This document shows positions 1-56,981 of a stretch of DNA of 64,000 bases, piece after piece (positions within the stretch are counted from its first letter, which is position 1; each line of letters opens with the position of its first letter). Made by a program: the position numbers and the translations under genes. Source of the stretch: an uncultured virus (IMG/VR IMGVR_UViG_2814123177_000001). Taxonomy: Duplodnaviria > Heunggongvirae > Uroviricota > Caudoviricetes. The notes below the pieces were generated by a model. That model made no database searches. It saw only the letters and a list, made by a program, of their open reading frames with translations, and was not told where the DNA came from. Location: the IMG/VR virus record IMGVR_UViG_2814123177_000001; one strand, written 5' to 3'.

Positions 1-369
1 TTAAAAGCTTATGGAATGTAACTCTTGTTCCATTTTCAGTACACTTTGCTCCCAATCCTTGATGATTCCTGGATGAGCTATTAGGAAATCATACATTATC
101 TGCAGTCTATCAGGTATGCACTCCACCTCTACCTTAATGGAACGAATAGAATTGTTTGATTCAAAGAAATAAGCATATGGTCGATCAAAGATCTCCATGA
201 ACATGACTAATTGCTCTGCTTTCACCTTGGTTTTTCCTGTTTCTAACCGCCAGTAAGCTGAAAGATCCATATCCATAGATTTAGCCATTTCTTCAAGCGT
301 TAGTTTCTTTTGTCCTCTTGCTTCTCTTAGCTTGTTGTGATTAAATTTCATAGCATCAAATCCTTTCAT
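1..369 (-). CDS. XRE-family HTH transcriptional regulator
   Basis: KLREARGQKKLTLEEMAKSMDMDLSAYWRLETG is a cro/CI-type HTH. Confidence 0.85.
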   Translation of the reverse strand: MKGFDAMKFNHNKLREARGQKKLTLEEMAKSMDMDLSAYWRLETGKTKVKAEQLVMFMEIFDRPYAYFFESNNSIRSIKVEVECIPDRLQIMYDFLIAHPGIIKDWEQSVLKMEQELHSISF

Positions 370-774
370 TAACTTCTAATAGTTTCATTACTTGGATTTT
401 GAGCTATATATAATATTTTGTTGAAAAATGGTAGTTGAATCGCAAATTAATAGTATTACCGTTGATTTTTGCTTATCTCAACATCTTCAACAAATCACTT
501 ACTTTTGAATTTACTAGATATAGAGAAATCAACAGATTCTAATCCCTTTATTGCCAAGGCTTTAACGTTTGAATTCTCCCTTTATAAAAACGTTGATTTT
601 ATTATGTTCTCTTCGTTTTTATAAAAAGATATAAATTGCTTCGCTTACACCTAGTTTGAATATGATTAGAACTAATATCTGTTTCATTTTGTAAAAGACT
701 TTTATTATTGTCGTTCAGTGATTAATCTCCTGACTTTGCTAAGAGAAAATAGAAATGATAAAACAGCTTTGCCT

Positions 775-1083
775 TTACTTTCTGATACCTATACTTTCTA
801 GTAATCTATCAAGCGCTCTATATGTTTCTATCTTTTCTAGCGTCAATTTATAGACTTGACTTATTAACTTCGCTTCTTTGACCGGCTCCCCATGCTCTAA
901 CCTGGTTAATCTACCATAGTCCACTCCTGTTTCTCGAGCAACAAATGCTCTTGATAAACCTAACTTTTCTCGCCACTTTAGTAGCTGATCACCTTCTTTG
1001 AACCACTTTTGTCTCGTTCTTTGAACTGATTCCGACCCTTCTTTCGATTCCTCGTCAGAAAATTGTAGATAAGCTTTCTTCAT
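775..1083 (-). CDS. XRE-family HTH protein
   Basis: REKLGLSRAFVARETGVDYGRLTRLEHG; RBS AAGGAGG. Confidence 0.8.
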   Translation of the reverse strand: MKKAYLQFSDEESKEGSESVQRTRQKWFKEGDQLLKWREKLGLSRAFVARETGVDYGRLTRLEHGEPVKEAKLISQVYKLTLEKIETYRALDRLLESIGIRK

Positions 1084-1248
1084 TTCAATATTCCTCCTTT
1101 TGATTTTTAATTACTAAAAACAAAAAACGCCCAGTACGTCAAAATATAATCGATAGCACAACAAAACAGTTGAACTACCTATACTTGACGCCTGAGCGTT
1201 TTATCTGAAAGTGTTTTATATTTTTCATTTTTCTATTCGTGTAAATAT

Positions 1249-1277
1249 AGCATACAAAGTTTATATTAAAAGGTCAA
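1249..1277 (-). promoter_or_regulatory. SigA-type promoter for the 775-1083 gene
   Basis: TTGACC-N17-TATGCT on the minus strand. Confidence 0.6.
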
Positions 1278-1340
1278 TATTTTTTATTTATTACTAAAAG
1301 CCTCTAAGAGCCTTTGGTATTTACTGTTTTTAATTTAAAG

Positions 1341-2114
1341 CTATGACATATTATAATTTTTTTCAGCTTCTAACAGCGCTTTATATGATGCTATAGCAAC
1401 TTCTAAATGTTCTATAGACGGCTTAGAAGTAAAGAAAAGATACTGTAAAAGTCCTCCAACCCAATAAAAAGGTGTCATAAATTTTGATTGAATAAGAAAG
1501 ATTTCAAATCCCAAACAGAAACTTAAAATAATTAATACAAAAATATCTGAGATAAAAAATGAAGATATAAAATAAGTAATTAATATAAAAACAGCAAGAT
1601 GCGTTCCACAACGTTTATGTATTCTTGACTGTTTAACTACATCAGTCAAAGCAATGCTAGAAAATCTGTTGTACGATGTATCCGTCATATGTTCAGCTCC
1701 ATGATACTTCCCAAGGTTACTCAATTTGATAACAATTGTAAAAATAACCAATATGATAGCTATTAGAAATAATGAGTGATTTTGCATCCATTCAACAATA
1801 ATCGATACCGGAAGAAACGATGAACCCTCTGAATTTTTTTCACTATCATAACTTACCGATTTAAGGAAAATAAAAAGTGGAAGAAATACCATTAAATAAA
1901 TTTTCCACATAACGATTATAGGCCTTGCAAATAAGTATAATCCACGAAGGAACGGTACAACACTAACTAATTCCTCGAACTTAGAAGCAATCTTTCGTTT
2001 AGATATATCTATAATAATTGTTCCATCTTTATTTCTTATAGCTTTTGAACTAAAATTCTCGGAATAAAAGGCCACACTTTTAAACCCTGCTGCACCACCT
2101 TTAATTATTGACAT
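1341..2114 (-). CDS. DUF1385/YqhQ-like membrane protein
   Basis: N-terminal GG-A motif, PFLRG, YHGAEH, SRIHKRCGT, several TM segments. Confidence 0.75.
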   Translation of the reverse strand: MSIIKGGAAGFKSVAFYSENFSSKAIRNKDGTIIIDISKRKIASKFEELVSVVPFLRGLYLFARPIIVMWKIYLMVFLPLFIFLKSVSYDSEKNSEGSSFLPVSIIVEWMQNHSLFLIAIILVIFTIVIKLSNLGKYHGAEHMTDTSYNRFSSIALTDVVKQSRIHKRCGTHLAVFILITYFISSFFISDIFVLIILSFCLGFEIFLIQSKFMTPFYWVGGLLQYLFFTSKPSIEHLEVAIASYKALLEAEKNYNMS

Positions 2115-2151
2115 ATTAACTTAACCTCCAATACTAATGATCATTATGATC

Positions 2152-2970
2152 TCAGTCTTTCCAAAGGGTAATTAATTTCTGATTGTCAAAGATATTAAAA
2201 CTTAATAACATGATTGCATGTAAAAATATATGTTGACAAGTATCATAGTCATTATTTGTTTCATCATGGAATTTATTAATCTTCTTTAACAACAGAGTCA
2301 ACTTTTTTATGAGAGGGTTGTTTTTTGATTCAGAATTATATTGAACCTTCATCAAGATACACATGAGGTGTTCATCTATTCTTTCAGTAATTAAAGGCTT
2401 ATCTAAAACAATATTGAAGATATAGTCATCAAAACCCTTCACTACATCTAAACTCCAAAATTCCGACTCAAATTCATGTTCAATATTATAAAGATCCCTG
2501 TATACATCAATTACATTCGCTTTGTATAGATAATAATTATACATAGATTTTAGAGTTTCATTTTCAGGATATACGATTTTTTCACTAATTATTTCTTCTA
2601 GTAACTCTTCAAATTCGTCATCCAACTCTAGCACACTGCTGCAATAAATATAGAAGTATTTCTTGGAAGCTATGTAATTTTCTGTACAATCATAGTTTTG
2701 AAAGACCCTATAAATTTCTTGAATTCTCTCAGTAAATGAAGGTGATTCCTCAAGAAATTTATTAAGTGTTTTAATTGTAGAGTATGGCATCTTAATATCA
2801 TCTTTTAAACCACTATACATAGAGAGCAGACCTATTAGTTCATCAGTATATCCATACCCCCAACTCTCTCTCTCCGGAATTATAACTTTTCGTTCTCTCA
2901 TTTCAGTTATTCGATGTCTTTTTAATCCAGTAATCCTCATAGCATCAGATATTCTTAATTTCTTAGACAT
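2152..2970 (-). CDS. Hypothetical protein with MerR-like N-terminal HTH
   Basis: LRISDAMRITGLKRHRI...IIPER...YTDE resembles a MerR winged HTH; remainder unassigned. Confidence 0.5.
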   Translation of the reverse strand: MSKKLRISDAMRITGLKRHRITEMRERKVIIPERESWGYGYTDELIGLLSMYSGLKDDIKMPYSTIKTLNKFLEESPSFTERIQEIYRVFQNYDCTENYIASKKYFYIYCSSVLELDDEFEELLEEIISEKIVYPENETLKSMYNYYLYKANVIDVYRDLYNIEHEFESEFWSLDVVKGFDDYIFNIVLDKPLITERIDEHLMCILMKVQYNSESKNNPLIKKLTLLLKKINKFHDETNNDYDTCQHIFLHAIMLLSFNIFDNQKLITLWKD

Positions 2971-3146
2971 AAATTCACCCTCTAATTTGTTCTAGAATTC
3001 TATAAATTAATTTTAACTGTAATAGTAGTCTTACAGTCAAGAGCTTACAGCAGCAAAACAAGTTTCATAAGTCTCGTCATCTTGTAATGCTAATATTCTA
3101 GAACAATTGAAATATAAGTGTTAATTATCCCTCTGAGCAAACCGTA

Positions 3147-3175
3147 TTGACAAAAAATAATAAATCCTATAAATT
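3147..3175 (+). promoter_or_regulatory. SigA-type promoter upstream of the DUF771/integrase operon
   Basis: TTGACA-N17-TAAATT. Confidence 0.55.
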
Positions 3176-3447
3176 ATATTTACAAACTGAATAATACTTA
3201 GACACTAAAACTAATACACACTATGATAAAGCGCATTCGCGATAAGACACTGTTAGACTTCCTACTTGGAGTCTGCACTTATCAGCGGATGCGCTATTTG
3301 TTTATAAAAAACACATAAGTAACTTTATGGTTATGTGACAAGGATTGGATACTCTGATTGTTTCTCTAATGCACATTCAAGGAACCTAAAACATTTCAGA
3401 TAAAAACGTTTTGAAAAAAATTCATATTAAATCTGGAGGAGAACCAT

Positions 3448-3768
3448 ATGCAACAACTATCAGTTAACTTAACAATCCCAATCCCATCTGATTCAGTCCT
3501 TATTACAAAAATTGAACTAGAGGAACTAAAACAACAACAATTAACCGGAGTTTATTGGTCAATGAAAGATCTTGAAGCAAGAATCAATCGAAAACATGAA
3601 TGGATTAAAGAGAATATTCTCTATTCACCTAAGTTCCGAAAATTGCTCGATGTAGAATATGGCGGATTTGTATTTTATCCCCCCAAAAAAGGTCAAACAT
3701 GGTCTTTTCAGGCAACAAAAATGGCTGATTTTTTGGAGAAAAATTTTCACCGAATATTTTCTATTTAA
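3448..3768 (+). CDS. DUF771-family protein (putative excisionase/RDF)
   Basis: YWSMKDLE...WIKENILY.P.F...GGFVFYP...W.F pattern; adjacent to integrase. Confidence 0.7.
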   Translation: MQQLSVNLTIPIPSDSVLITKIELEELKQQQLTGVYWSMKDLEARINRKHEWIKENILYSPKFRKLLDVEYGGFVFYPPKKGQTWSFQATKMADFLEKNFHRIFSI

Positions 3769-3867
3769 TTGCAATCATTCATAACTACAAAAATTGAGTA
3801 AAACTTGTTAAGATAAGGGTGACCTATTATCGGCCAGACACCCTTATCAATTAAGTGAGGGGATATT

Positions 3868-4977
3868 ATGGCTAGCATTCAAAAGAGAGGTAAAACATAT
3901 CAGTTCACCGTCAGTCGTACTGTAAATGGAAAATCGAAACCTATTCGTAAAGGAGGATTTCGCACAAAGAAAGAAGCTCAAATAGCAGCTGCAGAAATAG
4001 AATCACAACTAAGCAAAGGTTTGCTTCCACATCTAACTCCAGTTCCAATAGATGAGTATTTTGACAAATGGGTGAATCTTTATAAGACAAATATAAGTGT
4101 TACTACTCGTATGCATTATGAATACACATCTAGGGCAATAAGAACATTTTTCGGCAGTAAACCATTGCAGGAAATCACTAGACATGGTTATCAGATGTTT
4201 ATCAATGAGTTCGGTTCCAATAAAGCAAAGGAAACCGTAGAAAAAGTCAATACTCATATCCGGGCTTGTGTGAAGGATGCAGTGGATGAACAAATCATAC
4301 ATCGTGACTTTACGAGAAATGCTAAAATAACCTTTACAACGCCTGCTAAAAAATCTGATGAAAAGCACTTACACTACAAAGAAAGTGAATTGCTGTTAAA
4401 AGAGATCTGGAATCGCCTTGGTCAAGGATTAGGCTACTCCTTATTACTCCTAGGATTAACTTCTGGAATGCGCTTTGGAGAGCTTGTGGGACTGACGAGA
4501 AGCGATTTTGATTTTGTTAATAATACAATCAGAATCAATAAAACATGGGGCTATTTGAAAAGGCATCCTGAAGGATTCGGGCCAACAAAAAATGAGCAAT
4601 CGAATCGAACAATAAAAATGGATTCCAAGACCATGGGGCACTTTAAAATGCTATTTAAAAGTATGCCTACAAATATTCATCAGTTAGTCTTTTATAGCCC
4701 ATCTTCCAAATACAAAGTAATCAGCAATACGAATGCAAATAAGCTGCTAAGGAAGATATTAACTGAGCTTAAGATAGATCCAATTACCATGCATGGATTA
4801 CGACATACTCATGCCAGTGTTCTGTTGTATAAAAAGGTTTCAATTTATTATGTAAGTGAACGACTTGGACATAGTGACATTGATACAACGTTAAGGGCAT
4901 ACACGCACGTCATTAAAGAGTTACGAGAAAAAGATGAGCTTGGAACTATCAATACTTTCGAGAAAATGATTGTGTAA
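3868..4977 (+). CDS. int: Tyrosine site-specific integrase
   Basis: N-terminal arm-binding GGFRTKKEA; catalytic SGMRFGE, HGLRHTH, RLGH, AYTHV. Confidence 0.95.
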   Translation: MASIQKRGKTYQFTVSRTVNGKSKPIRKGGFRTKKEAQIAAAEIESQLSKGLLPHLTPVPIDEYFDKWVNLYKTNISVTTRMHYEYTSRAIRTFFGSKPLQEITRHGYQMFINEFGSNKAKETVEKVNTHIRACVKDAVDEQIIHRDFTRNAKITFTTPAKKSDEKHLHYKESELLLKEIWNRLGQGLGYSLLLLGLTSGMRFGELVGLTRSDFDFVNNTIRINKTWGYLKRHPEGFGPTKNEQSNRTIKMDSKTMGHFKMLFKSMPTNIHQLVFYSPSSKYKVISNTNANKLLRKILTELKIDPITMHGLRHTHASVLLYKKVSIYYVSERLGHSDIDTTLRAYTHVIKELREKDELGTINTFEKMIV

Positions 4978-5114
4978 AAAATGTGTAAAATAATTTGAAA
5001 TTCTATCGATTTCTATCGTAAAGTACAATAAAATAAAAAGCTCACAAATCCTTTCATATCAAGGATTCATGAGCTTTTTCGAATGATTAATCTTAGCATA
5101 AATTAATCTAATGA

Positions 5115-5196
5115 TACCGGTGGTCGGGGTCGAACCGACACTCCAGAAGGAACACGATTTTGAGTCGTGCGCGTCTGCCAATTCCGCCACACCGGC
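5115..5196 (-). tRNA. tRNA-Leu (anticodon CAA); CCA not encoded (followed by TCA)
   Basis: GCCGGTGTGGCGGAATTGGCAGACGCGCACGACTCAAAATCGTGTTCCTTCTGGAGTGTCGGTTCGACCCCGACCACCGGTA: full cloverleaf with long variable arm. Confidence 0.95.
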
Positions 5197-5338
5197 GCTA
5201 TGACTGGATTCGCAAGCACTTTCGGTTCGTATTATTCGAACGTGGTGCGTACTATCCGGTTTATTGTCGATCATCGCGCGTCATATCATACGAAGCTATG
5301 TCGTTACGTAATCGAATCGTGCGTAATGAACAATTAAT

Positions 5339-5368
5339 AATATATCATCACGCGTATGAAGTTGTCAA
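5339..5368 (-). promoter_or_regulatory. SigA-type promoter pointing into tRNA-Leu
   Basis: TTGACA-N18-TATATT with extended -10 TG. Confidence 0.65.
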
Positions 5369-5385
5369 CGGTTAATTTCGAAATT

Positions 5386-6201
5386 TTATTCGTCAAACCA
5401 TTCCGCAAATCTACCCGCCATGCTGTTCGCCTTTTCGCGTATCCTTTTCGAAGTCAAGGTCGCCTGCTTCCAACTCGCAAATAAGTAATCGTCCATGCGT
5501 TTTACCTTGCGTTGTTTCGCTTTTAGTATCGTAGCATTCCACGCCTCAATGAACGGCGCTTCGTTATCTTCGATGACTACGGTCGGATCCACGCTTGCTT
5601 TTGCTCGCAATAGAATTCCGTAATATTTATAAATGGACTCGGCGTTATGAAAATATTTCACGATTGCGTTATATATTCCGCTAGGCAGCACGTTTTTTAA
5701 TGCGTTTGGCTCCACCGCCGTATCTAATACGTAATTGCCTTTTAAAGGCTTAATAAAATTCGATGGTTCATTTCCGGAATTGCTTGCCTCCGCCTTACTC
5801 TCCGTTGGCTTGTCGCTGCCTGCCCGATTGGACACGCTCGACTGGACATGTTGCTCCGCACCATTATTTCGCTCGCCTCCCGCCGGCAATATCCGCAGTA
5901 TATTAGCGCCTTTGCCTCCGTTCACCTTCCGCGTTGTTGCAACCTTTTCGATGATTCCTAATTCCGCCAGCTTGTTAACGATGCGCCTTGCCGTCTTTTC
6001 GCTGCGATCGATTAACTCGCTGATAGTTGACGCTTTTAAGTGGCACGCGCCTGCAAACTTAACGCAATAGCGAGCGATCATTTTCAGCGCCTTGCGGTCC
6101 GTTTCGTTTAATTCGTATGTATGATTGCGTATATGTTCGTATACTGCTGCGTTTAATTGCGCGGTAGAATCGAACGTAGAATGTTCCGCTAAATAGTGCA
6201 T
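5386..6201 (-). CDS. HTH-domain replication-initiator-like protein
   Basis: Winged HTH (STISELIDRSEKTARRIVNKLAELGII), low-complexity linker, C-terminal helical domain; start set at MHYLAEH after RBS AAAGGAG. Confidence 0.6.
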   Translation of the reverse strand: MHYLAEHSTFDSTAQLNAAVYEHIRNHTYELNETDRKALKMIARYCVKFAGACHLKASTISELIDRSEKTARRIVNKLAELGIIEKVATTRKVNGGKGANILRILPAGGERNNGAEQHVQSSVSNRAGSDKPTESKAEASNSGNEPSNFIKPLKGNYVLDTAVEPNALKNVLPSGIYNAIVKYFHNAESIYKYYGILLRAKASVDPTVVIEDNEAPFIEAWNATILKAKQRKVKRMDDYLFASWKQATLTSKRIREKANSMAGRFAEWFDE

Positions 6202-6223
6202 ACTGGTTTCTCCTTTCGTTAAA

Positions 6224-6543
6224 TACGTAATTACGTACAACTCATACATCTTATTATAATACGTAATTGCGTAATGTCAATAATTGTTTTATAATATTAA
6301 TAGTATTAGATGGGAGTGGTTTTGATGGAAATATACGTTAAAGTTAAGGAGATTTTAGAAGAAAGAAATATTACACAATTACAATTAGCTGAGATGACAG
6401 GAATACGACGAGCGGGGATTAATGAGATATGTCGCAATCAGACTAAAGCAATCAATCGTGACCATATTGTAAAAATCGCTGAAGCTCTAAACATAAAAGA
6501 TTTGTCTGAAATTATTGAATTAAGGGGTTGAACGCAATTACGT
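6224..6543. promoter_or_regulatory. Three copies of palindromic operator ACGYAATTRCGT at divergent promoters
   Basis: 6224-6237, 6260-6273 (within TTGACA-N16-TATAAT, minus) and 6532-6543 (within TTGAAC-N17-TACAAT, plus). Confidence 0.75.
6310..6531 (+). CDS. XRE/Cro-like repressor
   Basis: ILEERNITQLQLAEMTGIRRAGINEICRN. Confidence 0.85.
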   Translation: MGVVLMEIYVKVKEILEERNITQLQLAEMTGIRRAGINEICRNQTKAINRDHIVKIAEALNIKDLSEIIELRG

Positions 6544-6586
6544 AATAGTGTACAATTAAGATATCAATTAATAGGAGGTTACGTTA

Positions 6587-6982
6587 ATGAAGTTATCCCT
6601 TTCAGATTCCCAACATGAAACTACAGAAGTATATGTAAGAACTAGTAGTGGAGATTTAAGTTTAATTGGAGAGACTAACCTAACCAATGTGCAAAAAATT
6701 TATGATATGGTAGACGCGACACCTGAGGATAAACCTATTGTTAGAAATAAACATACTTTTAATATAGAATTACGTCTAAAAGATATATTAAAAGAGCGTA
6801 GAATTGAGCAACAGGACTTTGCTAGATTGACGGGTTTATCTACTCGTACGGTAAGTGAATTATGCACTGGAAAAATGAAAAGGTATCCTAAGGACGCGTT
6901 GGAAAAAATAATTACTGAGCTAAAAATAACAGACATGAATCTTCTATTTAATATAACCACAAAAGAAGCCTCTTCCAACTAA
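6587..6982 (+). CDS. Protein with C-terminal XRE HTH
   Basis: LKDILKERRIEQQDFARLTGLSTRTVSELC. Confidence 0.8.
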   Translation: MKLSLSDSQHETTEVYVRTSSGDLSLIGETNLTNVQKIYDMVDATPEDKPIVRNKHTFNIELRLKDILKERRIEQQDFARLTGLSTRTVSELCTGKMKRYPKDALEKIITELKITDMNLLFNITTKEASSN

Positions 6983-7004
6983 GGATGGGGCTTTTACACT
7001 AACA

Positions 7005-7349
7005 TTAAATATCTAACACTTTAACGCCAATCACGTCCGACATATAAACCCGATCTAGCGATTCGTATTTGTCGAGCAACTTTATGCGGAAGTTCTTGCC
7101 GACGGCATCTACGTAATGAACGCGACCAACCGCAACGGAAACATAACCGTCATGCCAAGACGTAAACTCGACCGGATAGTTATATTCCATTGCGTATTCA
7201 ATTAACGAATCAAATTCCGCTTGCTGATATTCGTCAATGATCGGCTTATCTGTGCGGTACTCTTCCTCGTATATTGCGTCGCGTAATTCTTCGATTAGTT
7301 CCGGTAGCATTATCGAAGTCCATTTCTTTGTTCCTCGGTCTTTAATCAC
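7005..7349 (-). CDS. YolD-like protein
   Basis: GTG start after GGAGG gives MIKDRGTKKWTSIMLPE, the typical YolD-family N-terminus. Confidence 0.8.
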   Translation of the reverse strand: MIKDRGTKKWTSIMLPELIEELRDAIYEEEYRTDKPIIDEYQQAEFDSLIEYAMEYNYPVEFTSWHDGYVSVAVGRVHYVDAVGKNFRIKLLDKYESLDRVYMSDVIGVKVLDI

Positions 7350-7506
7350 GCCTAACACCTCCGAAGGCTTTTTCGTCATTATAACCGAACGTAAGTTCGC
7401 AGTCAAGGCGTCCGTGATTCACTTCGTAATAATAAATCATCTGCGCCACGTCTTCAGGCGTGAGCCCACGTTCTTCTAATATCGCAATGAATTCCGACCA
7501 AGTCAT
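7342..7506 (-). CDS. Small hypothetical protein (54 aa, MTWSEFIAILEERG...), not in the ORF track
   Basis: RBS GGGAGG; ATG directly after the ATPase stop; open to TAA at 7342. Confidence 0.45.
   Translation of the reverse strand: MTWSEFIAILEERGLTPEDVAQMIYYYEVNHGRLDCELTFGYNDEKAFGGVRRD
7378..7406 (-). promoter_or_regulatory. SigA promoter with LexA (Cheo) box in its spacer
   Basis: TTGACT-N17-TATAAT; CGAAC-GTAA-GTTCG at 7386-7399. Confidence 0.85.
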
Positions 7507-7508
7507 CG

Positions 7509-10127
7509 TTACACCTCCCCGCTTGCTAGTAGTTTTTCAACCGTTTGCCAATGGCGCCCATACATTCGCGAATGCCTTTTCGTTAAGAATGAATTATCGT
7601 ATTGCTGCACACGTTGACTTGCCGGCGGTAACGCACGCATTAAGAACGCATTTTGCCTTCGACCTCCAAACCGTGCCAACACAATCGCATCGTACGCTTC
7701 GATTCGCAACGCTAAGTCAACGTCGAATGTCGGTTTCAATTGCGCTTCCAGCCGTTCGAACACCTTACGATTGTCATTGGCGAATAAGAACCAGTTAATG
7801 CCGCCGCTGATTAAATCGTCGTCTAGGCCGTATCGCAATAAATCGAAATGATGAAATGCGAATATGCCAGCGAGTCGCCACTTCGGTCCTTCGAGCACGA
7901 TACGTTGCATTAGCGCTTTAAGCCCTGGCGTTAGGAATTGATGCGGTTCGTTAAATACGATGAATGCGCCGCCGTCGTTCGGATCCATTAATAGCTTCGT
8001 CATGAATATTTTTAGCGTAATCCAATGAATCAATGTTTTCGCCGACAATGCGCCTAGTTTCCGATTCGGCACGCGTAATATAACGACCTTGCCCTCGCGT
8101 ATCCAATTTGCGAAATCAATATCCGCCGATGCTGGTTGCGCAAAAATACGGAACAACATATCGTCGCCAAGCATTTCGTCGAGCCGGTTGAGTATCGCGC
8201 TTGCTTTGCCGTCGATCGCCTTTTGACCGTCGCGTATTAACTTCGGATTGCCCTTTGCATCTACGCCCCATTCTGACGTGTATTTCTCGATGAATTCCGC
8301 AGTCCTTACGTTACCTTGTTGCCGTAGTTCATTCGCCTTTTCTGCACGATATCCCTCGTCTTCGAGCAATCGTTTAATCGCAAATAATGAGCCGCCACTT
8401 GCCTTCGCAAATTCTCGCAAGATTGCACGCGATTGCCCCATCGATTCCATGTCGCCAAAGAAGTCGATTAGTTCCTGCGCAAAACGATTCGCACCATTTG
8501 CGCCAAGCTGCTCGACTATTTCCGTAAGGTCCATCGGCACGGGGTATTCTGCGTCTGACAAATCGATATCAATTATGCGATCAGGCGGTAACGAATCCCG
8601 CACTCCGTCCGCAAATCCGCGTTCTCCGTCTTCCATTATTGCGTCGATAACAAACGAAGCTATGTCGTGCTGCAATGCGCCTTCAATGACGACATTTTTC
8701 GCTAATGTATCTTTACCCATTCGAGGCGCTCCGACTAACCCGTAACTGCGGAATGTTTCGTCGAGGTTGTTCGTCGGCAATCCAATCGGATACTGGATGC
8801 CCCGCACTTCGCTATGTCCGACGAGTATGCCGTTTATTTTACGGCGGTTTACAGGCAAATCAGCGCCTTTTCGCGTTATGTTACATTCGCCTATACTAAT
8901 GCGGATTCCTTCTATTTCGACATATTTTTGCGCTGGTTTATGTAGCATCACTTTTGGCAGGTCCGTTTCTACTCGGCGATTTGTTGCGAGTTCTTCTTCG
9001 TAACGTTGTTGCACGATTGCAGTCGGCATTTGTAGCGCTACTTTCGCCAGTTCATCGCATGATAGCAACGAAACGTCCCCGTCGGCTCTTGTTCGCGCGG
9101 AAAGATGCAGCGTATTTAATTCGTCGAGTATTTCTTGCTTACGCGCTTTCATGCGAACCTTAAACGGAACCAATTCGTTATTGCCCGCTAATTCCCCAAA
9201 CGCGCTACTTATCGTATTCGCTACGAGCTGACCGCGTAGAATTTCTTTCGTGCTAGCAACAACGCGAACGTGCGATTTCCAAACCGCTTGGTTTATTTTA
9301 TCGGCAGACTTGGCACTTAATTTATTCGCCTGGATTTCTTCGATCAATGCGTCGGGCTTATCAATTGCCTTGCGCTTTTCAAAGCCGCCAGCACTTTTAA
9401 AGAATACGTTACTGATTGCGTGTAGTGTGTCGTTTACAATATCGTATATTTCGTTTAACATCGTAGCGAGCGCCTTACCTAGCGTTTTATACGCCTTGTC
9501 TGCCGTTAGTTTAGCACGTTGTGGTACTTTGCCCTTCGTTAACTTTTCATGCGCATATGAGGCGTTCTGTGACCACTTACGACGGTCTAGCGTTTCGGAA
9601 CAAACGGACAGCCTTGCGTAATCTCCGTCTTCCGCAATATCATCGAGCGCGGTTAAAATTGAAGCGACCGGCGAAGTCTGTTCGGCTGCATTCGTTTGTA
9701 GAGCAAATATGTCATGGCGGGCAAGGCGCAGTTCATTCAGCGTTACTTCGTTCCCCGCCGGCACAACAAGCGCTGATTTGTCCGCAACTTCGACCGTTAC
9801 ATGCATAAAGTTTTCGACTATCTCGCGAAACTTCTTCGCCCATATTTGCGACGTACTGACGTAATACTCAACCGACTTCACGCCGGCAACCTGGCGAAAC
9901 ACTACGTCAAACCAAATCGTATCTTTCTCGCGCATCGTAAATCGAAATCCTTCGCGTGTTAAGCGCGTTGGCATGCGATCATATATTTCGTACATTTTAT
10001 GCAACACTCGCCACATCTTTGCGTTTTGATTATTCGTTACATTGCTGTGTGGCGTGATTCGGTACGTTATCATTTCGTTGCGTTGATAAGCGAAGAACTC
10101 GCGCAAGCTCATGCGTTGAGTAGCCAT
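7509..10127 (-). CDS. Large FtsK/HerA/VirB4-like P-loop ATPase
   Basis: Walker A-like GAPRMGKD, Walker B-like FIVFNEPHQ, IREGKVVILRVP; start set at MATQR overlapping the upstream gene. Confidence 0.7.
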   Translation of the reverse strand: MATQRMSLREFFAYQRNEMITYRITPHSNVTNNQNAKMWRVLHKMYEIYDRMPTRLTREGFRFTMREKDTIWFDVVFRQVAGVKSVEYYVSTSQIWAKKFREIVENFMHVTVEVADKSALVVPAGNEVTLNELRLARHDIFALQTNAAEQTSPVASILTALDDIAEDGDYARLSVCSETLDRRKWSQNASYAHEKLTKGKVPQRAKLTADKAYKTLGKALATMLNEIYDIVNDTLHAISNVFFKSAGGFEKRKAIDKPDALIEEIQANKLSAKSADKINQAVWKSHVRVVASTKEILRGQLVANTISSAFGELAGNNELVPFKVRMKARKQEILDELNTLHLSARTRADGDVSLLSCDELAKVALQMPTAIVQQRYEEELATNRRVETDLPKVMLHKPAQKYVEIEGIRISIGECNITRKGADLPVNRRKINGILVGHSEVRGIQYPIGLPTNNLDETFRSYGLVGAPRMGKDTLAKNVVIEGALQHDIASFVIDAIMEDGERGFADGVRDSLPPDRIIDIDLSDAEYPVPMDLTEIVEQLGANGANRFAQELIDFFGDMESMGQSRAILREFAKASGGSLFAIKRLLEDEGYRAEKANELRQQGNVRTAEFIEKYTSEWGVDAKGNPKLIRDGQKAIDGKASAILNRLDEMLGDDMLFRIFAQPASADIDFANWIREGKVVILRVPNRKLGALSAKTLIHWITLKIFMTKLLMDPNDGGAFIVFNEPHQFLTPGLKALMQRIVLEGPKWRLAGIFAFHHFDLLRYGLDDDLISGGINWFLFANDNRKVFERLEAQLKPTFDVDLALRIEAYDAIVLARFGGRRQNAFLMRALPPASQRVQQYDNSFLTKRHSRMYGRHWQTVEKLLASGEV

Positions 10128-10342
10128 ATAATCGCACCGCCTACGCCGACCGCCATTCGCCCAAGCCATTTCGGAACATCGCCCGTTATCATTATCATAA
10201 CGCCACAAACTAATACGACCCCTGCGCCTATTTCCGGCATAGTTGCCGTTAGGATTTCCGTTAAATGATTTGCGCCTTCTACTAACGCCTCGCCAATCGG
10301 TTTTAGTACAACCTTTTCGCTAAAATCTTCGAACCATCGCAT
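10109..10342 (-). CDS. Small two-TM membrane protein
   Basis: Two hydrophobic segments; RBS AAGGAGG. Confidence 0.7.
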   Translation of the reverse strand: MRWFEDFSEKVVLKPIGEALVEGANHLTEILTATMPEIGAGVVLVCGVMIMITGDVPKWLGRMAVGVGGAIIWLLNA

Positions 10343-52678: not shown

Positions 52679-53193
52679 TTGGCACCAACCTTCGCATAAC
52701 TGTTTCCGTAAAACGCAACGTATTGTGCTTCGATTTCTTTGCGTCTGCGTTGCGCTTTTAACTTCGCTAAATCGATTACGTTAGTTTTCATCGCTGCCAG
52801 CCGCCTTCCATACCGTTGCGATTATTGCGATGAAGTATATTGCGAATAATAATGCAAAAAAGTTCATCCGAGGCGCACCGCCTTTACAACCGGATAGTCG
52901 TGCTCGCCCGTACCTTCGTATAGACGTACCGGATCTTGTGCAATTCGTTGAAATTTTTTCGCTAAATAGGTTTTATCGCCGAATAATCGGGCATATTTAT
53001 TAGTAGACGGCTGATATGCCGAATTAGATTTACGTTTCATAGTAATGCGAACCTCCGTTCTCTCTTGCGGAATTTGTCGAAACTTGTTATGATTACACTA
53101 TAGTCAATGGTTACTAAAACTTTGACTTTCGTGTATAATAAAACCGTGGTACGCCACACGACACAGTGCCTAAGTGCCGTGTAGTCCACTAAT

Positions 53194-53793
53194 TTAAAGC
53201 GCAACTAAATAATCGCGGTGTGAACCGTATTGTTTAGAATCGAATTTGCTCGCCAGCTTTTCGAGTTTGCGTATCACCGTTGAATGATGCAGTCCTAAGC
53301 TTTTACCGATTGCCGTCGGTGTAGGTTTCGGATGTTTCAAGAACGTTTTAACTACGCCAATAGTTAATTCGTCCGCGTCTTTCAGCAAGGAGTCGATCAG
53401 CGCCAACTGGTCGGCTTCTTTAATTTCGCTAATTTCTAAGTTTGAGGATTCGTCTTTGATTTCGAATAACTTTCCGTCATCCGATTCTAGTTGGTGTATT
53501 TCGTTCTTCAAGCGATTTCCGTTTTTTAGGTAAACATCGCGTCTTGCTCGCCAAATACTTCGTTTTAACAAATTCGTAAAGTTTCCTCTTCCATCATACA
53601 CTTCGATACACCTTAGTAGAGTATCTTCGTATATTGCTAACGTCTCGTGTTCGTCTGATCGTATCGACTTTGCTACCGAACGAAGCCCTCTCCATTCCGC
53701 TGAAACGATACTATATATCTCGCCAAAGATAATATCGCAATGAGTCTCTTGGTAAGAAATAACTAACTTATTTAATTTTTCGTTTTTATCCAA
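53194..53793 (-). CDS. Phage sigma-factor-like protein
   Basis: Region-2-like YEDTLLRCIEVYDGRGNFTNLL; region-4 HTH TAIGKSLGLHHSTVIRKL. Confidence 0.7.
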   Translation of the reverse strand: MDKNEKLNKLVISYQETHCDIIFGEIYSIVSAEWRGLRSVAKSIRSDEHETLAIYEDTLLRCIEVYDGRGNFTNLLKRSIWRARRDVYLKNGNRLKNEIHQLESDDGKLFEIKDESSNLEISEIKEADQLALIDSLLKDADELTIGVVKTFLKHPKPTPTAIGKSLGLHHSTVIRKLEKLASKFDSKQYGSHRDYLVAL

Positions 53794-53968
53794 TTTAATA
53801 CTCCCCTTTCATTTACATATAATAATAAGGTTATTAATGAAGTTTCGCGCAGCTTTTTTTTAAAAAATTAAATATTTACTTCTTACCGTTATATTACAAC
53901 AATTTCCTTTAATTCCCTTAGTTTGTGACTGATTTTATTTTCTGAAAATAGTTCACATAAGTGAACAT

Positions 53969-53995
53969 AAAAAAAGTCCAATGGGGAATTGGACT
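53969..53995 (-). terminator. Terminator after aimP
   Basis: AGTCCAAT-N5-ATTGGACT followed by a T run. Confidence 0.7.
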
Positions 53996-54023
53996 GTTGA
54001 TTTATTATTTATATTAGCGGTTA

Positions 54024-54200
54024 TCAGCCTCCCCCGATACCTCCACCACCGCCAGGAATGTACATAGGTGACATTACTCCCGACTCTACTTGACTGCTCT
54101 CTTCTTGAGATGTAGGATCTGTTTCTTCTGCAGAAACTACTGGTGCTGTTAATCCGATAATAATTGAAAGTGTTAATAGTAATGCTGCTATCTTTTTCAA
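54024..54200 (-). CDS. aimP: Arbitrium pro-peptide AimP (58 aa), not in the ORF track
   Basis: TTG start after AGGGAG; MKKIAALLLTLSIIIGLTAPVVSA signal, acidic spacer, C-terminus MYIPGGGGGIGGG. Confidence 0.85.
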   Translation of the reverse strand: MKKIAALLLTLSIIIGLTAPVVSAEETDPTSQEESSQVESGVMSPMYIPGGGGGIGGG

Positions 54201-54213
54201 GTTATCTTCTCCC

Positions 54214-55374
54214 TTAAATAATATTTAGACTACTTAATAACGGAGAAACGATTTGTTTATGGGAATCATCTAAGTAACTTAAAGGAAGTTTAGCGAATAA
54301 TTTATTACCCGAATTTAGTAATTTCCCAATAGATTTAACTAGATAATCTGTCGACCCTAACGCTAGACCTTTATAGCACTCAAAGAATGGATCCCCTTTA
54401 TCTTCTATACCTTCTAATATCTCTAAGGCCAAATCCGTTTCACCAATCTTCGCATAAAAATGCGCTTGTTCAATCTTAGACGAATCTTTAATTTCAGTTT
54501 CGGTATTTACTCCCCAAAAAGTACGTAAAAAAGGATAGTCATTTTCTAATACATACATTAACTTATCCTCAAGATTATACTCTTGTAAATAACCAACATA
54601 TTCATCTAAGTATTTAACCGCCATTTCGTAATCTTCAAAGAAATACGAAAGGCTCATATTATAATAAGCGAAAAAGTTGAATCTCGCGCATGTTAGTGGT
54701 GAAAGAATTAAAGAATTTAAATAAAATCTAGCTTTCTTCTCTTCTCCTTTTGCAAAAAGATACACATTTGCTAAAATCTCATTTAACCTCAATTGAAATG
54801 TCTCTTTTAAATAATCATTCATTTTCTTACTTTCTAAATTTAAAGTAATTTCCACAGACATCTCAAGAACCCTTTTGTAATGACCTTTCTTATAATACAA
54901 ATATGCAACTAGTATCTTTTTAAAAATCACCATGTCATACGATTTGACTTTAATGCTATTTAATTGCTTTTCTATATCTTTAATTGATAAATCTTGAGTT
55001 TGAAATTTATAGGCGATACTATACACTTGATGCCACTCTTTACAGGTTGTATTCGATGTATCCATAGTCTTCAAAGCTTTGCCTAACTCATCCAATAAAC
55101 CATTAATAGATAAATACTCAAGCGAAAGCCTTGTGTTTTGTTGTTGTCTCTCTACGATAAAAATTTCTATCGCTTCGATCATTAACTTTTGCTCGTTATT
55201 TGGATTCAGAAATTTAAGTGATTTTAATACATTATAGAAAGATAAATCATTTTTATAGTTAAAAAACTTCGAAAATGTACTATGATGAACATTAATATTT
55301 GCTGCTAACTCGGTTGAATTAATATCATATGTAACGCGTTCCATTTCTGATAATAAGAGTCGACGAAGTGGCAT
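54214..55374 (-). CDS. aimR: Arbitrium receptor AimR (HTH + TPR)
   Basis: 386 aa; N-terminal HTH; SLEYL, EQAHF, PFFECYKGLA, GNKLFAKLP; followed by a secreted peptide gene. Confidence 0.88.
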   Translation of the reverse strand: MPLRRLLLSEMERVTYDINSTELAANINVHHSTFSKFFNYKNDLSFYNVLKSLKFLNPNNEQKLMIEAIEIFIVERQQQNTRLSLEYLSINGLLDELGKALKTMDTSNTTCKEWHQVYSIAYKFQTQDLSIKDIEKQLNSIKVKSYDMVIFKKILVAYLYYKKGHYKRVLEMSVEITLNLESKKMNDYLKETFQLRLNEILANVYLFAKGEEKKARFYLNSLILSPLTCARFNFFAYYNMSLSYFFEDYEMAVKYLDEYVGYLQEYNLEDKLMYVLENDYPFLRTFWGVNTETEIKDSSKIEQAHFYAKIGETDLALEILEGIEDKGDPFFECYKGLALGSTDYLVKSIGKLLNSGNKLFAKLPLSYLDDSHKQIVSPLLSSLNII

Positions 55375-55506
55375 ATTGTTTATCTCCTTTGTTTTAAATT
55401 AACCTAGGTAGGTAGAAATAATTACAAATATCTGTTATATTTATAGTATACTACAAATGTTCATATATGTGAACATTTTTGTCCAAAAAATTAACGGAGG
55501 TGTAAG

Positions 55507-55707
55507 ATGATTAGTTATGACCCCTTATTTAAAACTTTAAAGTTTAGAAATTTAGTCATTAGTGATTTAAGGAATAAACCTTTACATCCAACTACAATTG
55601 CTAAAATTAATCGCGGTGAATCTATATCCCTTACTAAAGTTGATGAACTATGTAAGGTTTTGAATGTAAAAATACAGGATATAGTAGAAATTATTATAGA
55701 AGATTAA
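55507..55707 (+). CDS. Cro/XRE regulator divergent from aimR
   Basis: MISYDPLFKTL...TIAKINRGESISL..VDELCKVL. Confidence 0.85.
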   Translation: MISYDPLFKTLKFRNLVISDLRNKPLHPTTIAKINRGESISLTKVDELCKVLNVKIQDIVEIIIED

Positions 55708-55737
55708 ATCAATTACATAAATATGAGGTGAAGCGCC

Positions 55738-55968
55738 ACGAAACGGGTCGGAAGGTGCTTGATCGGCGACTATCGTAAGCGTATGAAACTAACGCAAACA
55801 CAACTCGGCGAACTAGTCGGCATGGATAAGTCCCGCGTATCGGATTACGAAAACTTGCGCTACGTAATGAAAGTCGATACCGCGAAACCATTTGCCGATG
55901 TATTCAATTGCTCCATCGAAGAACTTTACGAATGGGTCGACGACGAATCAAGCGACACGGAAGGGTAA
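55738..55968 (+). CDS. XRE regulator, possible ACG start
   Basis: LTQTQLGELVGMDKSRVSDYEN; RBS GAGGTG 7 nt before an in-frame ACG. Confidence 0.75.
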   Translation, partial: TKRVGRCLIGDYRKRMKLTQTQLGELVGMDKSRVSDYENLRYVMKVDTAKPFADVFNCSIEELYEWVDDESSDTEG

Positions 55969-55985
55969 GCGAATTAAAACATTAC

Positions 55986-56981
55986 TTACCCGAGGCGCAA
56001 TGTACTCAAATTCACGTACAAAGAACTACGACCTTCCGCCCGAGCAACCGCATCCCTCAACGAAGCCACTCCGAACTTCATCAACGCCTCATTCGCGTCC
56101 TTCACCCGCTGATCCACTCGCACATGTCCGATTCGCACTCGCCCTTTCAACGCCTGCTCTATTTCCGCTCGTAACTTTTCGCCAGCCTTATCGTTATCCG
56201 TTGCGATGAGTAATTCTTCGATTGGCGACGTTAAAATTAAATCGCGCTTAAACTCGTTAAAACTTGCCCCGCCAGTAGCCAGCGCATCGTAGCCAGCAAC
56301 GCGCCAACTTAACGCATCAATCTCTGCCTCGCAAATTAATGCGGTCTTGCCTACTCGGTCGATTCCGAATAGCAACTCACGGATTGGCCACGCTCCTTTC
56401 GCATACCAAAACACCTTGCCGCGTGTTTGGCGATACTTTACGTTCGCAAGTCGGCCGTCCGCTTGTCTCCACGGTATCACGACCGCATGACTTTTCGCAT
56501 CGAACTTTATTCCTATTTCCGATTGGAAGTTCGCTCCAATTCCGCGCGACTCTAAATACGAATAATCCTCGGCGTATTGCGCCAGGAACTCGGCACCCAA
56601 CGCTTGCCTAATGCGCTGGGGCTTTACGTGTATTTTGCGCAATTGGATCGGCGCATTTTCGTCGGCTGCAAACGGAGCATATTCCGCCAATAAATAGTCT
56701 TCCGTTTCTTCCGCCGTTTCGTTGCGCAGGAATGCGAGTAATTTTACAAGGCCGCCGCTGGACCATTCGTTGTCATAGGCGCCGCTGTCGTGGAAGGTGC
56801 CCGCCGGATAGTCACCGTGTTGTTCGAGCCGCACGAAAAAGCTAGGCGTTCGATCATAGCGAAAAGGACTGGCTGCGATTAACTTGTCGCTGGACCAATT
56901 CGGTCGAGTCCATGCGAATTGTTCGAGTTCCGTACGTACGTCAATGTCAACCGGTTGATTGCGTATATATACCTCCGCCAA
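55986..56981 (-). CDS. DNA primase (TOPRIM)
   Basis: SPFRYDRTPSF, CEAEIDA, ATDND.AG, KDANE; TTG start after AAAGGAGG. Confidence 0.88.
   Translation of the reverse strand: MAEVYIRNQPVDIDVRTELEQFAWTRPNWSSDKLIAASPFRYDRTPSFFVRLEQHGDYPAGTFHDSGAYDNEWSSGGLVKLLAFLRNETAEETEDYLLAEYAPFAADENAPIQLRKIHVKPQRIRQALGAEFLAQYAEDYSYLESRGIGANFQSEIGIKFDAKSHAVVIPWRQADGRLANVKYRQTRGKVFWYAKGAWPIRELLFGIDRVGKTALICEAEIDALSWRVAGYDALATGGASFNEFKRDLILTSPIEELLIATDNDKAGEKLRAEIEQALKGRVRIGHVRVDQRVKDANEALMKFGVASLRDAVARAEGRSSLYVNLSTLRLG

Follow-up and report, generated by a model that had tools for sequence, protein, structure and literature searches.

An arbitrium locus with a predicted long glycine-rich signal and a sigma-like neighbour gene in a Niallia prophage

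Does a receptor gene followed by a pro-peptide with a long glycine-rich end constitute an arbitrium system and, if so, how long is its signal and which gene does it control? The locus raising this question lies in a stretch of 64,000 nucleotides, here called the window, which belongs to an IMG/VR provirus record of 66,101 bases; positions 53000-56000 are identical to a stretch in a Niallia circulans record (L113). In the available text of the surveys, predicted mature AimPs have 6-10 residues and fall into nine or ten clades (10.1101/2025.10.13.681967; PMC13220667; 10.1101/2021.09.20.460909), and only the six-residue clade 2 systems are well characterised (10.1101/2025.10.13.681967; PMC13220667).

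According to ORF calls in the window, aimP lies 13 bp past aimR, both genes are on the minus strand and a terminator-like hairpin comes next (Table 1), so the 58-aa pro-peptide ORF and the terminator are where the original prediction had put them. The receptor matches Pfam PF22871 (E 5e-51, 174 bits, cut-off 26.7) and NCBIfam NF038310 (217.5 bits, cut-off 70), and phmmer relates it to solved AimR proteins at E 6e-20. Its AlphaFold model, built from a 142-row alignment, reaches pLDDT 96.6, and Foldseek aligns the model with Katmira/SPbeta AimR (6s7i/6hp3) at TM 0.80. Family matches and fold thus bear out the AimR-like HTH-TPR gene. Given an AimR-family receptor, a short ORF with conserved C-terminus directly 3' of it and a temperate phage (an IMG/VR provirus with an integrase, phrog_1, at 3868-4977), the assignment to arbitrium stands as well.

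Table 1. Features of the aimRP locus and its surroundings (positions in the window)
Feature	Position	Strand	Basis
aimR, HTH-TPR arbitrium receptor, 386 aa	54214..55374	-	PF22871, NF038310, fold
aimP, 58-aa pro-peptide, TTG start, end SPMYIPGGGGGIGGG	54024..54200	-	kept in L002; RBS-like AGGGAG
15-codon conserved tail with predicted mature signal	54027..54071	-	codon comparison with L002
IPGGGGGIGGG, within aimP tail	54027-54059	-	
Intrinsic terminator-like hairpin (53995-53975) and T run, 3' of aimP	53967..53995	-	identical in L002
GTTC-N8-GAAC palindrome, downstream copy, candidate AimR antitermination site	53951..53966	.	motif search
GTTC-N8-GAAC palindrome, second copy, over -35 hexamer of predicted aimR promoter	55459..55474	.	
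Predicted aimR promoter	55473-55445	-	
TGCGCGA-N17-TATTAT, phage-type promoter-like, before sigma-like gene	53822..53851 (end approximate)	-	
Sigma-70-like gene, 199 aa, opens replication/metabolism run	53194..53793	-	TIGR02937, weak
Small Cro/C1-type HTH gene, divergent from aimR, repressor candidate	55507..55707	+	PF13443, E 7e-7
Second small HTH gene	55759..55968	+	PF01381, E 8e-11; phrog_8/phrog_3

The N-terminus of the aimP product is signal-like, as judged by eye and by a simple hydrophobicity score: KK and a hydrophobic stretch lead to VSA-EE, an acidic linker comes next, and the C-terminus reads VMSPMYIPGGGGGIGGG. AGGGAG stands 6 nt ahead of the TTG start. The product matches no family in Pfam or PHROGs and has only two weak matches in NCBIfam, which lie in the signal-peptide region and below the cut-off. 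In tblastn the pro-peptide found no match in the phage bank, a weak test since the low-complexity filter was on, and a peptide-pattern scan of viral contigs returned only three contigs, all already known. In L002, whose receptor is 90% identical, aimP is retained 13 bp past aimR with synonymous changes in its tail, and equivalent ORFs also follow related receptors; aimP is therefore more than a chance ORF. Codon by codon, the last 15 positions differ from L002 by four synonymous and no non-synonymous changes (0/15), against 6 of 12 non-synonymous codons in the linker (residues 27-38), 7 of 24 in the signal part and one of five in residues 39-43. The differences from the linker, both for the last 15 residues (Fisher p 0.003) and for residues 44-52, the nine that precede the final six (p 0.019), come from one allele pair, for the allele of run X1 matches L002 and is hence not independent. 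As read from these codons, the tail is under constraint; its xPG start is common to the window and its relatives.

Relatives of the receptor are mostly distant. Although 52 records of the phage bank match it, every one is less than 30% identical; a word-indexed homolog search gave two close receptors only, and among 344 relatives from a library-wide search (E<=0.001) the nearest past close alleles are 33-42% identical. Loci of relatives were gathered by primase-anchored searches and by profile searches of 269, 401 and 44 genomes; the profile searches revealed no further member of the window's lineage besides G003, and a viral scan with P0010 revealed none. A quick tree was computed from 100 non-redundant of 206 receptor ORFs and 29 library proteins, and a chosen subset of 55 rows was bootstrapped. 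There, the window receptor sits in a 15-row group (support 100/99) that contains neither phi3T, SPbeta, Wbeta-type phages, B83/BMBtp14 and Waukesha92/LY4 nor the DPPVGM loci, which their peptide would assign to the clade 1 type. It does not group with Wbeta-type references (peptides of the EIKPGG type, PMC8878798) or phi106-type (DPPVGM) ones. B83 belongs to clade 7 (PMC6669507) and MMVDPGGGGW to clade 9 (PMC11526630), where Waukesha92 is probably to be placed as well, judging from its peptide; the Waukesha92/clade 9 and B83/clade 7 references form a separate 100/100 group of 14 rows. A relationship to the PGGG class, proposed originally, consequently holds for the peptide motif and fails for the receptor, whose lineage is without any characterised reference among those used. 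Since the tree has no verified references for the published clades 3, 5, 6, 8 and 10, this lineage may overlap one of them.

Five of the 15 lineage rows come with DNA and ten are proteins only, so the pro-peptides of the lineage derive from these five. They end in IPGGGGGIGGG (two alleles), SPGGGGIGGD (L114/L230, a Cytobacillus purgationiresistens record), CPGGGGGGGNSMC (L156; the metagenome locus L110 has the same peptide with synonymous changes) and CPGGNGGTGGNCSG (L103). A cysteine within the last 20 residues was found in only two of 85 predicted pro-peptides, namely CPGGGGGGGNSMC and CPGGNGGTGGNCSG, each of which carries two cysteines around a glycine loop, and the receptors of the two are not sisters in the tree. 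Such ends might form a disulfide loop. Candidate disulfide-cyclised signals lie at L156/L021, with aimP 16-166 nt past aimR, and also at L110 and L103/L027; among literature judged by titles and abstract starts, no cysteine-bearing or cyclic AimP was found.

The neighbouring group of ten rows has DPG-start peptides of 7-12 residues, several of them as tandem repeats. Tandem copies of a predicted signal occur in the pro-peptides of L101, L102, L167, L191, L158, L244, L260, L263 and L265 (for example, YDPGDGPIGGAS twice and KKDPGTGGL twice), and AimPs with multiple peptide copies have already been reported (PMC9765709). In L106-L108, DPPVGM is internal and a basic tail of 17-23 residues follows, so that a signal placed there would need trimming on both sides. 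AimR-like genes themselves also stand in tandem within single genomes, three or four per run (G395:C1:4445553-4450192; G274:C7:93235-99066; G518:C2:199837-203201).

Whether the tail represents a new communication code, as originally suggested, depends on what has been catalogued. We did not find it in the supplement tables of PMC9765709, PMC11343458 and PMC13220667, each covered in part, with the two largest catalogues outside this search; the part of the PMC9765709 table covered contains no YIPGG, GGIGG or CPGG. Comparably long glycine-rich xPGG tails do appear in catalogues, however: the long AimP ADPGTGGGTGGRLVG in the PMC9765709 table, and a clade 2 AimP of N. circulans ending in AYIPGDGRPGG (PMC13220667 Table S1). 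The novelty claim thus holds for the tail itself in the tables searched, not for its general type, and the tail may be listed in Stokar-Avihail 2019 or Kabel 2025, both of which survey genomes that may include this prophage. In row 19 of the same Table S1, the proposed active peptide GDGGRP is absent from the listed AimP of N. circulans 7521-2 (the AYIPGDGRPGG end) and seems to be copied from the row above. The L002 receptor is, letter for letter, WP_123260718.1, for which the propeptide cell of the PMC9765709 table is empty. Set against the clear TTG-start aimP in L002, this empty cell suggests that some 'eavesdropper' receptors may be annotation misses.

Next, we turn to the DNA around the terminator. 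The 4.5 kb scanned contain 11 terminator-like sites, compared with 3.3 in shuffled sequence. The palindrome GTTC-N8-GAAC has exactly two copies in the whole record, at 53951 and 55459, with 0.07 expected for its five-base-arm form; both this motif and the promoter-like motif described below were defined after inspection of the data. The palindrome is found directly past the T run in the window, L153, L230, L156, L110 and L103. Of 43 loci, 5 have the pair, and these are precisely the loci of the window's receptor lineage; L131 has the downstream copy alone. The divergent Cro/C1-type gene keeps its position across the phage family, and in L101, L102, L234 and L242 the neighbouring HTH gene is as similar to that of the window, yet the palindrome is missing. 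Since the box tracks receptor lineage and not HTH similarity, AimR is favoured as its binder. In phi3T and SPbeta, AimR antiterminates via a site past the aimP terminator (PMC10769878); by its place behind the terminator, the downstream palindrome is a candidate AimR antitermination site. SPbeta-type operators consist of 6-bp arms 25 bp apart (PMC9232636) and, because known AimR operators have such spaced arms, the compact box may be the target of a different regulator. In both alleles, the downstream half-site of the downstream box is also the start of a long-spacer palindrome, TGTGA-N24-TCACA, and many other loci have long-spacer palindromes at the same place behind aimP. Between terminator and sigma-like gene we detected no LexA-like box (with up to two mismatches) and no ORF with a ribosome-binding site. 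A 30-aa TTG ORF starting within the terminator was considered as aimX and rejected for lack of an RBS.

The next gene after aimP, 230 nt on, is the sigma-like gene. Its match to TIGR02937 is weak (E 4e-4, 20 bits against a cut-off of 42.9), 15 of 20 homologues match the same family weakly at E<=0.01, and a Foldseek search with its model has sigma factors on top (best E 5e-3, none at E<=0.001). A homologue in phage 268TH002, directly after the AimR gene, is annotated 'RNA polymerase sigma factor'. Primase-anchored searches yielded 196 loci (repeats included), 113 of them with a full aimR. Sufficient DNA on the downstream side was available for 61 distinct receptors, of which 54 have a sigma-like gene as the next gene within 450 nt; this count describes one phage family because the loci were fetched by their primase, and receptors from several tree groups occupy one slot in it. 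Behind the other seven receptors (L028, L029, L031, L039, L051, L064, L224), the next gene codes for 175-210 aa, is unmatched by the sigma-like profile and is possibly a diverged or replaced output gene. Public runs yielded no transcript evidence; their RNA contigs span about 250 nt of the sigma-like gene only.

The promoter-like motif TGCGCGA-N17-TATTAT has five matches in the genome (53851, 54690, 41587, 41637, 64819), all on the minus, that is lytic, strand; a loose form occurs in 25 of 57 loci, at least three of them off position. One copy (54690-54660) falls within aimR, some 490 nt ahead of aimP and across the codons of CARFNFFAYY, and is a possible internal promoter for aimP. With a promoter-like motif of its own, the sigma-like gene need not depend on read-through. 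If the motif is indeed the phage sigma factor's own promoter, read-through by AimR would start a loop of positive feedback.

Starting from the genes, their order and conservation, the motifs and the fold and lineage of the receptor, we infer export, processing site, binding, antitermination, sigma activity and feedback, and propose, with slightly less than even confidence, that a temperate Niallia phage decides between lysis and lysogeny through an arbitrium system with a long signal and AimR read-through into the sigma-like gene, an output that would differ from the established antirepressor pathway. AimP would be exported and trimmed to a signal of 11-15 aa whose first residue is the Ile of Ile-Pro or one shortly before it, and the mature peptide, re-imported, would turn AimR off. 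Without signal, AimR would bind the site past the terminator and transcription would continue into the sigma-like gene. The sigma-like protein would then activate the TGCGCGA-type promoter of its own gene together with further promoters on the lytic strand, leading to positive feedback and lysis. With signal, transcription would end past aimP and the phage would remain dormant. The second palindrome could let AimR restrain its own promoter, and the motif copy inside aimR could make the phage produce more peptide in the lytic phase. Neither the operator pair nor the sigma-like output gene nor the two-cysteine relatives figured in the original prediction.

How long, then, is the mature signal? 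A long C-terminal form of 11-15 residues is our best guess, with about an even chance of being right. Counted from the residue that precedes Pro through the C-terminus, the window has 11 residues, lineage relatives with DNA have 10-14 and the Waukesha92/B83-type references 5-8; since the tested Waukesha92 peptide MMSEPGGGGW has three more residues in front (PMC11945551), the count extends from 11 to 14-15. The originally predicted length of some 12-13 residues falls inside this range and within the conserved block of 15, while the receptor's anchor residues leave room for a hexapeptide. SPbeta AimR holds its six-residue peptide by N202, R228 and E300 (PMC9232636), which align with N203, R231 and E302 of the window receptor. 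Because these anchors, E300 for the N-terminus and R228 for the C-terminal carboxylate among them, are kept by alignment, the signal may be of ordinary length, GGIGGG or 7-8 residues, the upstream residues being a protease-recognition leader. Such a signal would agree with the modelled fold, the same overall as in hexapeptide receptors, and a Gly at position 4 would fit the loss of the Arg4-binding set in the alignment (N206 to F, N329 in a gap, D360 to N). What makes it unlikely is that the R228 and N202 equivalents are not retained elsewhere in the lineage (K/N/T and R/H/Y in the alignment), that E300 is retained also in the long-peptide systems LY4, B83 and IEBH, and that the R231 codon is within the promoter-like copy at 54690 and could be held for another reason. 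Moreover, GGIGGG barely differs from the GGIGGD of relatives whose receptors are 33% identical, and the repeat units of sister systems comprise 7-10 or more residues, opening at DPG (in L101, L102, L167 and L191 each unit opens at xDPG, and sister-system repeats delimit DPGxGPIGG as one unit). An internal 9-10-mer such as MYIPGGGGG(I), cut on both sides as an analogue of the clade 9 peptide MMSEPGGGGW and leaving IGGG as a tail, is likewise improbable: conservation extends to the IGG end (IGGG, IGGD, PIGG; L230, L101, L102) and the receptor stands outside the Waukesha92 group. In its favour, the register MxxPGGGG matches MMSEPGGGGW and MMVDPGGGGW, and tailed precedents exist in the DPPVGM pro-peptides of L106-L108 and the spaced repeats of L101/L102. 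Neutral proteases cleave before hydrophobic residues such as Ile, which would suit this cut.

The output, too, could differ from the favoured read-through into the sigma-like gene. Read-through might yield an RNA regulator or express a very short leaderless ORF, with the palindromes as operators of the small HTH repressor and the sigma-like gene under its own promoter only. SPbeta aimX, which in the available text seems to act as RNA (10.1101/2025.11.23.689978), is a precedent. The compact palindromes suit small HTH dimers, and one copy lies in the 132-bp gap common to aimR and the HTH gene; the separate TGTGA-N24-TCACA overlapping the downstream box fits SPbeta operator geometry, and in both alleles the T run contains the start of a 16-codon ATG ORF that lacks an RBS. 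We nevertheless consider this quite improbable, as the box follows the receptor lineage rather than HTH gene similarity, the 233-nt region past the terminator folds no better than shuffles (z -1.46), and the minus strand shows no second terminator-like site from 53951 to the start of the sigma-like gene.

Compared with clade 2 (phi3T SAIRGA, SPbeta GMPRGA), the locus shares the order aimR-aimP-terminator, the receptor fold (TM 0.75-0.80), a candidate operator just past the terminator and the absence of aimC downstream. Unlike clade 2, its receptor falls outside the phi3T/SPbeta group (21-24% identity in structural alignment), its tail is glycine-rich instead of xxxRGA, its palindrome is compact and its next gene is sigma-like instead of a MazE-like aimX or sro operon. 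The Waukesha92/clade 9-type and B83/clade 7 systems (MMSEPGGGGW, MMVDPGGGGW, MADPGGSVG) share with it the M-x-x-P-GGG motif near the pro-peptide end and a divergent HTH gene upstream of aimR, and offer a mature peptide of up to 10 aa as precedent; however, they have their own downstream small ORF and opposite-strand HTH gene, both missing from the window, they count 7 residues rather than 11 from the one preceding Pro onward, and the window receptor is in its separate 100/99 lineage. Roughly 75% of arbitrium systems carry an aimX-aimC-aimL module downstream and some 4% resemble SPbeta (available text of 10.1101/2025.11.23.689978). In the extended module aimR-aimP-aimX-aimC-aimL described there the arbitrium pair controls early lytic/replication genes, as is proposed here, whereas the window has no opposite-strand HTH repressor or cro-like gene downstream, and aimX, aimC and aimL were not found past its aimP. 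The locus would fall in the 'generic RP' class, which the same source, as far as available, leaves unexplained; the portion of its main text covered never mentions 'sigma'.

Closest in layout are the Bacillus phages 268TH002, 268TH007 and phi18-2 together with Mgbh1, which have the order primase - two HTH - (aimR) - sigma-like - ssDNA-binding - DNA polymerase, as compared by region in 268TH002 and Mgbh1. They differ in that 268TH002 has another AimR type and no annotated aimP, and Mgbh1 the same backbone without aimRP. The GenBank entry of 268TH002 (L292) has AimR, then the sigma factor, and no aimP in the gap at 3738-4001. A literature search by titles found no functional study of these four phages.

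A long signal is plausible and would exceed the known lengths only modestly; more surprising and testable are the two-cysteine relatives and the sigma output. Taken jointly, the observations could describe an uncharacterised lineage with glycine loops of 11-15 residues, some closed by a disulfide (CPGGGGGGGNSMC, CPGGNGGTGGNC), and a Bacillaceae phage family of about 65 kb in which AimR antitermination primes a self-activating sigma factor and receptor-peptide cassettes of several clades have been exchanged in one slot, a reading that we offer as tentative and on balance doubtful. If true, CPGGGGGGGNSMC and CPGGNGGTGGNC would be unprecedented as cyclic and perhaps redox-sensitive arbitrium peptides, and the AimR-primed phage sigma factor would be a third output wiring. 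A longer or cyclised signal would widen the range of oligopeptide permease import and of reading by a TPR pocket. For lysis control by arbitrium beyond the SPbeta and aimX-aimC designs, the locus offers a testable answer, read-through into a sigma factor, and this idea is approachable in B. subtilis phages that are in culture, 268TH002 for instance.

At the left end of the window (1-7400), the integrase on the plus strand is accompanied by a number of HTH genes and, at 5386-6249, by an HTH protein that resembles a replication initiator. This part may be a second element or an accessory region, the phage having its own primase, helicase and polymerase. Further on, at 7509-10208 on the minus strand, an 899-aa protein matches phrog_5156 (E 1e-195).
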